Positions 1 to 2,609 of a DNA stretch of 57,324 nt are shown in pieces; position 1 is the stretch's first letter, and the number at the start of each line of letters is the position of its first letter. The notes beneath the pieces are model-generated. The model searched no databases. It worked only from the letters and a program-made list of their open reading frames with translations, and was not told the DNA's origin. Source of the stretch: a virus (lineage: Duplodnaviria > Heunggongvirae > Uroviricota > Caudoviricetes); the IMG/VR virus record IMGVR_UViG_2778261526_000005. One strand, written 5' to 3'. The translations under genes and the position numbers were made by a program.

Positions 1-1476
1 TCAAGGCTGCCCAGTCTTACCAGCATCAGCAGAAACAGCTTTGAGGATATAGGGTTCCAGAAGTCTGGCAACGGCTTCAAATACTGGCACCACAACGGAG
101 TTACCGAACTGCCGATATGACTGAGTATCTGAAACCGGAATACGGAATGGTTTCCCTCCAGGTTTTTCAAACCCCATAAGGCGTGCGCACTCTCGGGGAG
201 TCAGCCTGCGTGGTCGACGAGCCTGGTTACTCTCATTCATAAAGTCAGCCTCTCCCGTTGCCATATCCCAACCACGATCAATAAGAATTTCTGATCCGTC
301 TTTGTGATATCTGGCAGAAAGTGTGCGTGCAATGCTTTCCTTATTCTCAGGATTGACCAACCCAAAGCCAAAACCATTCCCCTTGGCTGCATGCTTTTTG
401 GCGTAGTTATAAAGGTACTCCCATAGTTTTGGCGTAAGTATATATTTACTGTCGACTACAGGCTCCAGCAATTCACCAAATGATGGGCGGTGTTCCGGAT
501 AAAAACGACTGATATCACGCAAGGTAAACCCCTTGTGAATATTCAGATCTCGTCTAAATCCGACCAGAACAATGCGTTCACGATGCTGAGGCAAAAAATG
601 CTTCCCATCGATAATCTTTGGATCGTTTTTTCCCATTTCTGCAGCATCGGCAACTTCGTAGCCCAGCTCGTCAAGGGTCTCCATAATGACTTTGAAAGTT
701 TTACCCTTATCATGGCTCTTCAGATTTTTGACATTTTCCAGCACAAAAATTGCCGGTTTTTTTGCTCGTATAATACGTGCCACGTCAAAAAAAAGTGTTC
801 CTTGTGCTTCACATTCAAAACCATGCGCACGACCAAGTGAGTTTTTCTTACTAACACCAGCAAGGCTAAATGGCTGGCACGGGAACCCCGCAAGAAGCAC
901 ATCATGATCCGGCACATGCTCATCAATATATGCATAAGCATCCGTTTCCAATACATCGGTTTTATCACTCAGCGTGACTTCCCGAATATCGAGATTGAAT
1001 TTATGCACCTGTTCATCGTTAAACCAGTTGGCCTTGTATGTACGCACAGCATCTTTATTCCATTCACTGGTAAAAACACACTGACCTCCAATGGCCTCAA
1101 AACCTTTCCGTATCCCTCCAATTCCAGCAAATAAGTCAATGAAGCGGAAAGCATATTCCGGATGGTTTGCAGGTGGTTCTGGTAGCATCTTACGCAGAAG
1201 AGACTCTTCTACTGAAGTCAACGATTTTGGTAAACACTTGCCATTAATCCAGCGGTTAATGGTTTCACGGCTCCACTCATTTTTTCCGACTTTTCTCAGT
1301 AATTCAGCCACATACTTCTGATCATAGATTTCCAGCACTTTCTCGATAAGCTTTTTATCATTTTCCTGTCGCAGCTTTTCTTCCGCCTCGGCTTCCTTCA
1401 GCAGATGCTGTGCCAACACTTCAAATTCAGACATAATTCCTCCAAGGGGTCTAATGGGTGAAACTTTATCACTCAT
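1..1476 (-). CDS. DNA-cytosine C5-methyltransferase, Dcm/M.EcoRII-like (full length, stop at 1-3)
   Basis: Motif [11 protein letters not shown], motif [22 protein letters not shown]; collinear over whole length with E. coli Dcm as recalled. No vsr downstream. Confidence 0.85.
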
Positions 1477-1835
1477 TCAACCCAGAAGGAAATGTTTTAT
1501 CTGGATATTTAAACAGTGACTACAACGTAATCTAGCACTGGTGATGCTTTGTTAGGCATAGAGAATCATTCTATATACGACTAATGACAGAAAAACAGCA
1601 GACAAGTAGTTTGTTCATAAATTAACGCATACAACGTGCCTGCGGTTTTTGAGACCGGTCCGATCATCAAACGAAACATAAAATTAGCTCACACTATGAG
1701 GAAAAGTATCTTTTTTACTATGTAAATTCAAATGATTAGCCTCATTTACCCGATAGTTTTCTCAACACTACTGGTTGTGAGCCCTTGCAATGTTCATTAA
1801 TATACGTCTCACAAATAATTCATAGATATTGCAAA

Positions 1836-2609
1836 ATGGATATTACTGAGTTTCCTTCTGGAGTAATTGAACACCTTGGCTGGTATGTATACCGATTGAT
1901 TGATCCGAGGGACGGAAGCACCTTCTATGTAGGGAAAGGCAAAGGTAACCGCGTATTTGCCCATATGCGCGGTGAAGTGGCAGCGACTGATGATGACGAG
2001 TTACTGAGCAACAAGCTAAAGCAAATTAGAGAAATAAGGTTAGCAGGACTTGAAGTTATCCATGTCATCCATCGACACGGAATGACTGATGAAAAGACGG
2101 CGTACGAAGTTGAAGCTGCACTTATTGATGCCTACCCTGGGTTAACGAATATCATGAATGGTGCTGGCAGCAATGAATTCGGCGCCGCGCATGTCAAAGA
2201 GTTGATAGCAACATATCAACCCGAAACCATAACATTTCATCATAAAGCATTAATGATTTCCGTTAACAGAAGTGCAAAGGATTCAGAGCTTTATGATGCG
2301 GTTCGATTTAGCTGGCGCATTAATGTCTCTCGCGCCAGCCAAGCAGAAGTCATTCTTGCTACTGTAAGGGGAATCGTTCGAGGGGTTTTCATTGCTGATA
2401 AATGGCTCAAATCAACACGTGAAAATTTCCCTACGATGAAATACTGGGACGAGGATCCTGACTTTGAGGCAACACAAAGTTCTCGCTATGGTTTTGAAGG
2501 CCGAGAAGCCCCACCTGAAATAGCAAATCTTTATCTTGGAAAAAAAATACCAGATGAATTAAGAAAAAAAGGAGCTATGTCCCCGGTCCGTTACTCACCT
2601 AATTTTTGA
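1836..2609 (+). CDS. GIY-YIG nuclease-domain protein with uncharacterised C-terminal domain (alternative start 1785)
   Basis: N-terminal [28 protein letters not shown] fits the GIY-YIG pattern; divergent from the methyltransferase across a 300-bp intergenic region. Confidence 0.55.

Follow-up and report, generated by a model that had tools for sequence, protein, structure and literature searches.

A prophage-end defence island at ssrA carries an EcoRII-type methylase gene beside the gene of the anti-phage nuclease PD-T4-3/CMoRE

The EcoRII type II restriction-modification (R-M) system, known from IncN-type plasmids, consists of a restriction endonuclease (REase) and a C5 cytosine methyltransferase (MTase) that are encoded convergently, and M.EcoRII binds its own promoter region in an autoregulatory manner. 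The related methylase Dcm is encoded in the chromosome of E. coli K-12, which places vsr at the 3' end of dcm in the order yedJ-dcm-vsr-yedA. The same strain possesses an immigration control region, hsdRMS-mrr-mcrBC, which is a mixed island of R-M and type IV genes. As for GIY-YIG proteins, many of those encoded by phages are homing endonucleases, and GIY-YIG restriction enzymes such as Eco29kI and Cfr42I also exist. PD-T4-3 was reported by Vassallo et al. in 2022 (PMC9519451), its defence was confirmed independently in a native host (doi 10.1101/2024.12.20.629700), and a distant homologue of PD-T4-3/CMoRE provided further independent confirmation (PMC12366544). CMoRE is a single-gene type IV enzyme cleaving DNA that contains 5hmC or glucosyl-5hmC (5ghmC), and DNA containing C or 5mC is neither bound nor cut; the O157:H7 enzyme defends against T2, T4 and T6, with T4(C) escaping, and also protects strongly as a single cloned gene under its native promoter (PMC12923530). 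The same study defined a GIYxY-YIG motif with three tyrosines, an autoinhibitory acidic loop of four consecutive acidic residues, a 5hmC contact through the main chain of Y127 and a C-terminal fold without known homologues (PMC12923530). Here we describe a locus at one end of a 57,324-nucleotide viral sequence (IMG/VR record IMGVR_UViG_2778261526_000005, hereafter the window), where two independent and already known anti-phage systems of these kinds very probably adjoin at the prophage end closest to ssrA.

Layout of the prophage-end locus

The methylase gene and the GIY-YIG gene are divergently oriented, as had been noted in a preliminary description of the sequence, and are followed by the remnant of an invertase gene. 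The features are:

1..1434, minus strand: methylase, an M.EcoRII-type C5 cytosine methyltransferase of 477 aa (Pfam, NCBIfam, PADLOC and identity to M.EcoRII)
1435..1835, no strand: divergent intergenic spacer, containing the module junction at ~1627-1643
1836..2609, plus strand: GIY-YIG protein PD-T4-3/CMoRE of 257 aa (PADLOC, PDB 9U75/9U7U and signature residues)
2667..3068, minus strand: pin/Gin-type invertase remnant, C-terminal part only (Pfam Resolvase and HTH_7)

The open reading frame of the methylase spans 1..1476 on the minus strand (491 aa), beginning at an upstream ATG (1476); the ATG at 1434, which is the RefSeq choice and agrees with M.EcoRII, was taken as the start, and the last base of the stop codon is coordinate 1. 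The divergent frame on the plus strand runs from 1785 to 2609, of which the true start is the ATG at 1836, giving Y17, Y19 and Y31 in crystal-structure numbering. The invertase remnant matches the Pfam Resolvase profile at positions 79-144 only, in addition to HTH_7, and is annotated in RefSeq as a pseudogene that lacks the N-terminus and is interrupted by a stop, while related loci carry an intact pinE at this position. It marks the tail-fibre end of the prophage that bears the defence genes and belongs to neither defence system. The R-M cassette, in turn, immediately follows the att core of ssrA. With content of an already known type, the region offers a clean annotation example of a prophage-end defence island at ssrA; a literature search combining EcoRII, prophage and ssrA found nothing relevant. 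Positions 1-2609 gave no megablast match among 50,697 phage records, indicating that, at this sensitivity, sequenced free phages do not show this cargo. Elsewhere, the window also encodes AbiL and Hachiman.

The methylase and its restriction partner

Domain searches assigned the methylase to Pfam DNA_methylase (PF00145, E = 4.7e-78) and, at the N-terminus, DNA_meth_N (PF18284, E = 7e-27), to NCBIfam PRK10458 'DNA cytosine methylase' (927 bits) and to PADLOC MTase_II (E = 3.8e-230). The catalytic motifs FAGIGG, PCQ, ENV and QHR are all found, and together with the DNA_meth_N domain they identify a C5 methyltransferase of the M.EcoRII subfamily. The protein is 91% identical to plasmid M.EcoRII, compared to 69% over 442 residues for K-12 Dcm, with which it is collinear and presumably shares the CCWGG specificity; the collinearity with Dcm and M.EcoRII proposed in the preliminary description was thereby confirmed. 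In two of the listed genomes carrying this methylase variant, a second match place was found in each, consistent with retention of the chromosomal dcm.

All examined E. coli genomes with this stretch have a convergent gene for a 402-aa REase, located 34 bp past coordinate 1. Its product aligns from end to end with R.EcoRII (PDB 1NA6, residues 1-401, E = 4e-242), also matches the separate structures of the N-terminal (3HQF) and C-terminal (3HQG) domains of EcoRII, and shares 87% identity with a plasmid EcoRII REase. The matching genomes therefore possess, adjacent to the methylase gene, an REase with both the N-terminal effector and the C-terminal catalytic domains. The arrangement parallels the plasmid EcoRII system in the protein lengths (402 and 477 aa), in the convergent orientation of the R and M genes, with a spacer of 34 bp in the E. 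coli locus L001 and 33 bp in the plasmid locus L007, and in the domains, both of the REase being matched and the MTase having DNA_meth_N. It differs in that the allele described here is chromosomal, sits at a prophage end directly after the ssrA att core and shares ~80% DNA identity with the plasmid copies. At a threshold of at least 99% identity, this R-M variant was detected in 263 records regardless of whether R plus M or M alone was used as query, showing that both genes travel together.

The apparent puzzle of an orphan methylase arises because the window is cut at the methylase stop codon and the REase gene falls outside, and we conclude that the methylase belongs to an EcoRII-type type II R-M system as its M half, rather than being an orphan Dcm without vsr. 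A gene that touches the edge of a window cannot be called an orphan, as the partner 34 bp beyond the edge illustrates here. The REase is likely to be present in the source strain as well, judging from genomes that are identical to the window over 1-3800. The junction between the prophage and a P4-like satellite in the window was reproduced by no record in the E. coli collection, and the closest E. coli genome differs from the window at 40558-51528.

The window alone could not reveal what occupies the position that vsr takes in K-12, since it stops at coordinate 1 with the final base of the methylase gene. A tblastn search using K-12 Vsr as query against the window plus 12 kb past coordinate 1 in a matching genome gave no match better than E = 1.5, in line with the earlier remark that vsr is missing. 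The flanks consist of ssrA, the REase gene and the prophage, and no Vsr homologue is encoded in the window or in L001. Compared to the K-12 dcm-vsr locus, the methylase is collinear with Dcm, whereas the locus lies elsewhere, lacks vsr and contains a cognate REase gene.

The GIY-YIG protein and its upstream region

The N-terminal half of the GIY-YIG protein was recognised by Pfam as LEM-3_GIY-YIG (E = 2.4e-14). The domain search that had been proposed for the C-terminal half retrieved no domain from Pfam or NCBIfam, in agreement with the published statement that this fold has no known homologues. It was PADLOC and the PDB that identified the protein: the PADLOC model PD-T4-3 (PDLC04031) matched with E = 2.4e-140 (residues 1-256 of the 256-position profile), and residues 1-257 aligned with the O157:H7 CMoRE in PDB 9U75 (E = 3.7e-172, ~98% identity) and with the more diverged protein in 9U7U (E = 1.1e-150). 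Only four of the 257 residues differ from 9U75, namely T51 (A in 9U75), E55 (D), Q168 (K) and N194 (H), two of which fall within residues 103-257, the C-terminal modification-sensing domain, where Y127 is present. The GIYxY-YIG motif reads GWYVYRL...TFYVGKG, confirming Y17, Y19 and Y31, and the acidic loop D52-D53-D54-E55 (DDDE) corresponds to DDDD in the crystallised protein, DDDE being likewise found in the CMoRE of APEC O1. Length, domain order, motif, loop and Y127 are thus those of PD-T4-3/CMoRE, as is the organisation as a stand-alone gene with its own upstream region. By this near-identity the GIY-YIG protein is PD-T4-3/CMoRE, an already characterised anti-phage nuclease, and the present allele may be expected to cleave 5hmC and 5ghmC DNA and to defend against T-even phages as its close relatives do.

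Comparison of the spacer among E. coli loci revealed a break between the two genes. Where the R-M system is missing, similarity to the window begins only at 1627, 1640 or 1643, and in the O157:H7 alignment similarity is lost to the left of a 'CGGTTTT-GAGACCGG' element. The part of the spacer left of the junction belongs to the R-M cassette and includes the methylase promoter region, while ~190 bp on the right accompany the GIY-YIG gene. The junction at ~1627-1643 separates two independently mobile modules. A consensus promoter scan of the spacer gave three sites compared to 3.5 expected, and no terminators were detected in the scan. ARAGORN found no tRNA at the junction in the O157 locus; Rfam returned a sub-threshold tRNA-Sec-like match (27.5 bits, E = 0.059), and one may guess that the junction is the remnant of an old tRNA att site.

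Of 5426 E. coli genomes, 838 contain the GIY-YIG gene, which adjoins this methylase in 243, while 595 carriers (71% of the 838) have no adjacent methylase or R-M system; at other loci its left neighbour is the reverse transcriptase of retron Ec67 or an AraC regulator. With varied left neighbours and most copies lacking a methylase, the gene behaves as the single-gene system that PD-T4-3/CMoRE is known to be. Conversely, the plasmid EcoRII locus examined (L007) has no GIY-YIG gene alongside. Among PD-T4-3 homologues of other species, none of 80 loci gave a tblastn match to a Dcm/EcoRII-like REase or MTase at a distance of up to 6 kb, a screen that would miss C5 methylases too diverged from M.EcoRII. 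This co-occurrence check had been suggested together with the domain search, and its outcome favours independence. Viewed from the R-M side, CMoRE is adjacent in 245 of the 263 records of the variant (~93%, chromosomal copies), which could hint at linkage beyond chance. The prophage tail behind the trio of REase, methylase and CMoRE genes differs between loci, L001 and L005 having a Mu-like baseplate with pin and L006 a lambdoid J/Lom/tail-fibre set. All copies of the trio share at least 97.7% identity, and all have the att end at ssrA as their anchor.

Relationship between the two systems

Combining these identities, gene order, junction and counts, which were established here, with the enzymology published for near-identical proteins, the following picture can be proposed. 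The methylase would, by homology, methylate the inner cytosine of CCWGG like M.EcoRII and Dcm, and this modification would protect the host DNA from the cognate R.EcoRII-like endonuclease, which would cut unmethylated CCWGG of incoming DNA; we infer both the specificity and the block of cleavage by inner-cytosine methylation from the 87-91% identity to characterised enzymes. The C-terminal domain of CMoRE would sense 5-hydroxymethyl- or glucosyl-hydroxymethyl-cytosine, upon which the N-terminal GIYxY-YIG domain would cleave, and the acidic loop would hold the enzyme off ordinary and 5mC-containing DNA. Both systems should be compatible in one cell because CMoRE ignores 5mC, and they appear to complement each other, one acting on unmodified and the other on hypermodified cytosine. 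No evidence was found that either system depends on the other.

It is possible, though unlikely, that co-selection has made the R-M pair and CMoRE a three-gene cassette, whose tight linkage in E. coli chromosomes would be kept by selection and not by common descent, perhaps with shared regulation through the spacer. The high frequency of adjacency, the occurrence of the trio ahead of different tails and the complementary substrate ranges (PMC12923530) speak for such a cassette. Nevertheless, the near-identity of the copies and their anchoring at ssrA fit a single ancestral insertion that spread by descent and recombination; most E. coli CMoRE genes and the plasmid EcoRII locus lack the respective other system, and no methylase is linked to the homologues at the 80 loci. 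The upstream region moves with CMoRE, and the O157:H7 gene defends strongly on its own. In a native host, moreover, an RM island and PD-T4-3 were only additive, with non-overlapping sets of phages (doi 10.1101/2024.12.20.629700). A more specific form, to which we attach a somewhat lower and clearly small probability, is that EcoRII and CMoRE are kept by selection as a two-layer cassette reading the state of cytosine. Phages with plain cytosine would fall to EcoRII and those escaping by hydroxymethylation or glucosylation to CMoRE, the tolerance of CMoRE towards 5mC would permit the pairing, and the divergent 400-bp spacer might couple expression, for example through autoregulatory binding of M.EcoRII at its own promoter region.

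The preliminary description had considered an R-M-like or modification-dependent module. On this view the methylase and the GIY-YIG nuclease would be partners, either as an R-M-like pair in which CCWGG methylation blocks cleavage or as a Vsr substitute keyed to Dcm-type 5mC or T:G mismatches. Adjacent divergent genes and the precedent of GIY-YIG restriction enzymes lend this some appeal, but the methylase already has its cognate EcoRII REase, the ~98%-identical enzyme neither binds nor cuts C or 5mC DNA and defends alone in a host without the system, and the GIY-YIG protein has no similarity to Vsr. We reject the partnership because of the co-occurrence counts, the varied neighbours, the homology break in the spacer and the 80 loci without a methylase, and regard it as extremely unlikely, CMoRE being a validated single-gene system (PMC12923530). 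The nuclease is indeed modification-dependent, as had been suspected, although it is keyed to the 5hmC and glucosyl-5hmC of T-even phages and not to Dcm-type 5mC (PMC12923530). Equally, of the suggested combination of an orphan methylase with an independent nuclease only the second half stands. An orphan Dcm-like enzyme with a protective or epigenetic role, either the chromosomal dcm locus with vsr beyond the window or a solitary prophage methylase guarding phage DNA against EcoRII-family enzymes, would agree with the match to the PADLOC orphan-methylase model (E = 8e-226) and with an REase that is invisible inside the window; however, the locus lies downstream of ssrA instead of between yedJ and yedA, the methylase gene and chromosomal dcm share only 69% nucleotide identity, and an intact REase gene accompanies the methylase in the examined genomes sharing it, with equal record counts for R plus M and M alone, which makes this highly unlikely. 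What applies is a third scenario that had not been foreseen, a cognate restriction gene just outside the window. The remaining candidate, a free-standing homing endonuclease unrelated to defence, had been raised as well; the gene sits in a prophage, and many phage GIY-YIG proteins are of this type. It is refuted by the full-length identity to CMoRE/PD-T4-3 with its published defence phenotypes. LEM-3_GIY-YIG is the only Pfam domain, no DNA-binding module of the NUMOD or IENR1 type was detected, and the gene keeps a stable prophage-end position beside pin across hundreds of genomes instead of being sporadically inserted, leaving this reading a probability close to nil.

On the preferred reading of two adjoining, independent systems, the locus resembles the hsdRMS-mrr-mcrBC region in that modification-blocked and modification-dependent nucleases are clustered, covering both unmodified and modified invader DNA. 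The enzyme families are different, and the island described here is prophage cargo at ssrA; its type IV enzyme would tolerate the neighbouring C5 methylase because CMoRE ignores 5mC. The locus has little discovery value, as both systems are characterised, one of them with crystal structures of a protein differing in four residues. Further cargo genes could be sought in the variable position left of CMoRE, where the EcoRII R-M system, retron Ec67 or an AraC regulator is found.

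Identity of the GIY-YIG nuclease

The window comes from an E. coli chromosome. Over the first 15.8 kb it shares 99.97% identity with strain EC1722-1 (NZ_CP081192.1), the closest genome, from which it differs only in 40558..51528; over positions 1-3800, four complete genomes match it with 100% identity. Both ORFs of the preliminary description, a Dcm-like methylase divergent from a GIY-YIG gene and with no vsr, were confirmed at the left edge.

Features of the window
1..1476, minus strand: methylase ORF (Pfam DNA_methylase and Dcm-type N-terminal DNA_meth_N; NCBIfam PRK10458, 927 bits)
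1785..2609, plus strand: GIY-YIG ORF (Pfam LEM-3_GIY-YIG, residues 45-127 of the long ORF)
2667..3068: truncated pin invertase, right of the nuclease gene (Pfam, RefSeq)
35701..36897: prophage integrase, at the end of the prophage
39380..40579: P4-like integrase

The GIY-YIG protein (257 aa from the RefSeq start, ATG 1836) is PD-T4-3/CMoRE, two names of one single-gene anti-phage nuclease. It aligns with the PADLOC PD-T4-3 model over residues 1-256 of 256 (E = 2.4e-140), with the E. coli O157:H7 CMoRE (PDB 9U75; E = 3.7e-172), from which it differs by four substitutions in 257 residues, and with the APEC O1 CMoRE (9U7U; E = 1.1e-150). All three GIYxY-YIG tyrosines (Y17, Y19 and Y31) are conserved, as are the run of four acidic residues in the autoinhibitory loop (D52-D53-D54-E55) and Y127, the residue at the 5hmC contact. 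Pfam gave no domain besides LEM-3_GIY-YIG in the long ORF, and Pfam and NCBIfam searches of the C-terminal half, to which the preliminary description had drawn attention, were empty, in agreement with the authors' statement that the CMoRE C-terminal domain has neither sequence nor structural homologues (PMC12923530).

The first report of PD-T4-3 came from functional selection applied to the E. coli pangenome (PMC9519451), and its deletion in a native clinical isolate resulted in higher sensitivity to Tevenvirinae phages (doi 10.1101/2024.12.20.629700). CMoRE proteins, which are tetrameric, protect against T2, T4 and T6 and degrade DNA containing 5hmC or glucosyl-5hmC; plain-C or 5mC DNA is neither bound nor cut, and T4 with unmodified cytosine escapes (PMC12923530). 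Cleavage follows a symmetric CN11/N9G pattern and requires two modified sites, and neutralisation of the acidic loop renders CMoRE toxic and active on ordinary DNA (PMC12923530). A homologue of 48% identity is also a modification-dependent nuclease in vitro (PMC12366544).

The EcoRII-type partner of the methylase

Coordinate 1 is the final base of the stop codon of the methylase (477 aa from the RefSeq start, ATG 1434), and the window edge conceals its partner gene. EC1722-1 and the other examined E. coli genomes with this stretch have a convergent 402-aa ORF whose end lies 34 bp past coordinate 1. Its product aligns with crystallised R.EcoRII (1NA6) over residues 1-401 (E = 4e-242) and with both EcoRII domains that were crystallised separately, and shares 87% identity with a plasmid-borne EcoRII endonuclease. 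At ≥99% identity, the chromosomal allele was found in 263 records with endonuclease plus methylase as query and likewise in 263 with the methylase alone; the two genes travel together. As none of the collected genomes carries the window in full, we infer the endonuclease in the actual source strain from the matching genomes only. Left of coordinate 1 (11967..12000 of the matching locus L001), the 34 bp separating the two genes contain a G+C-rich inverted repeat or hairpin, CTCCCGGC...GCCGGGAG, likely a bidirectional terminator that both genes share.

With the plasmid M.EcoRII, which adjoins that plasmid-borne endonuclease, the methylase shares 91% identity, against just 69% with K-12 Dcm. Given this identity, the neighbouring R.EcoRII-like gene and the co-travel of both genes, it is the methylase half of an EcoRII-type restriction-modification (R-M) system, not an orphan Dcm. 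That it might be the chromosomal dcm, with vsr lying just outside the window, is contradicted by the 69% Dcm identity and by the absence of a Vsr homologue from the window and from the 12 kb past coordinate 1 of the matching genome; in K-12 the order is yedJ-dcm-vsr-yedA, with vsr overlapping the dcm 3' end. Each of two listed genomes bearing the methylase variant has a second place of match, consistent with a retained chromosomal dcm, whose DNA is ~69% identical to the methylase gene.

Linkage of the two systems

Among 5426 complete E. coli genomes the GIY-YIG gene was found in 838, in most of them without the methylase alongside: the two adjoin in 243 of the 838. Where R-M is missing, an AraC-family regulator (O157:H7, B2C, the latter with an Avs2 gene a few kb off) or a retron Ec67-family reverse transcriptase/endonuclease (23CRST031) stands to the left of the GIY-YIG gene, and the prophage pin invertase is still on its right; the position left of CMoRE (equivalent to ~1..1640) is a variable cargo slot. 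These loci begin to match the window at 1627-1643, and in a three-way alignment similarity disappears left of this point. The module junction therefore falls within the 401-bp spacer, and the nuclease gene moves together with ~190 bp upstream of it, which fits the strong defence given by the O157:H7 CMoRE cloned alone with its native promoter (PMC12923530). An EcoRII allele ~80% identical in DNA is held by ~150 plasmids, and in the one plasmid locus opened no GIY-YIG gene stood beside it. Among 80 PD-T4-3 homologue loci outside E. coli (Enterobacterales, 82-86% identity; MAGs of many phyla, 54-60%), tblastn found neither a methylase nor an endonuclease of the Dcm/EcoRII kind within 6 kb. On these counts, variable neighbours, junction and loci, the methylase and the GIY-YIG gene are not a pair. 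Of the preliminary interpretations, that of an independent, modification-dependent nuclease therefore holds, and those of an orphan methylase or a paired module are set aside by the adjacent EcoRII endonuclease and the 243/838 adjacency.

It is nevertheless conceivable that selection holds the R-M allele and CMoRE together, as CMoRE adjoins the chromosomal R-M allele in 245 of 263 records. We regard this as unlikely, because copies of the trio hardly differ and every one is anchored to the ssrA attachment core, even the one that a second island has moved away from ssrA itself; a single ancestral insertion that later spread is the simpler explanation.

Several observations concern the insertion sites and homologues. 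In NT1F10 (L002 10500..10560), the R-M/CMoRE cassette is preceded not by ssrA but by an incomplete copy of its 3' end, and the island upstream carries an ABC-three-component system, a HigA antitoxin and remnants of conjugation genes, which indicates that islands have accumulated in tandem at the ssrA att site. At the spacer junction (1640..1660; 5763..5841 of the O157:H7 locus L004) stands a short element, CGGTTTT(T/C)GAGACCGG, preceded in O157 by a tRNA-like fragment, for which Rfam gave only a sub-threshold tRNA-Sec-like match (27.5 bits, E = 0.059) and ARAGORN none; the element may be what is left of an old tRNA attachment site. The 54-60% identity in MAGs (Planctomycetota, Acidobacteriota, Actinomycetota, Chloroflexota and others; L019-L090) is full-length, and this cross-phylum conservation is unusually high for a defence nuclease. 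Some genomes, such as Providencia heimbachae and Phycisphaeraceae H1_PLA1, have two copies.

The feature is thus two already known systems; their gene identities and layout are established here, and their enzymology is extrapolated from studies of near-identical proteins. By homology, the methylase would modify the inner C of CCWGG and shield the host from R.EcoRII, which would cut incoming DNA at unmethylated CCWGG. T-even phages evade EcoRII-like enzymes by swapping C for hmC or glucosyl-hmC, the very bases that CMoRE recognises for cleavage; because CMoRE ignores 5mC, it should tolerate the host Dcm as well as the methylase next to it. EcoRII R-M and CMoRE would thereby be complementary.

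Prophage setting and other genes

The methylase/nuclease locus is a prophage-end defence island. Beside the truncated pin gene, a ClpP-like ORF (3175..3729, plus strand, 184 aa; Pfam CLP_protease, E = 5e-13) occupies the place of the pin-invertible tail-fibre segment of related prophages; it is rare, with a tail-fibre assembly gene next to it in all 26 of the 5426 E. coli genomes that have it, and gave no PADLOC match. To its right come degraded tail-fibre genes, followed by the rest of the prophage, which is otherwise complete and has a contractile tail.

An AbiL abortive-infection pair (37088..39039, plus strand), comprising AbiLi, an AAA_21 ATPase (E = 4e-101), and AbiLii, RloB (E = 3e-29), is situated between the prophage and P4-like integrases. 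The cargo slot of the P4-like satellite holds Hachiman (41160..44685, minus strand), with full-length PADLOC matches for the HamB helicase (41160..43742) and HamA (43744..44685); in EC1722-1 the slot holds an nSTAND1 NTPase. A second DNA methylase of the window, a phage N6-adenine methyltransferase encoded by the prophage and unrelated to the EcoRII/CMoRE finding, lies at ~29270..29925 (RefSeq annotation of EC1722-1, coordinates transferred at 99.3% identity).
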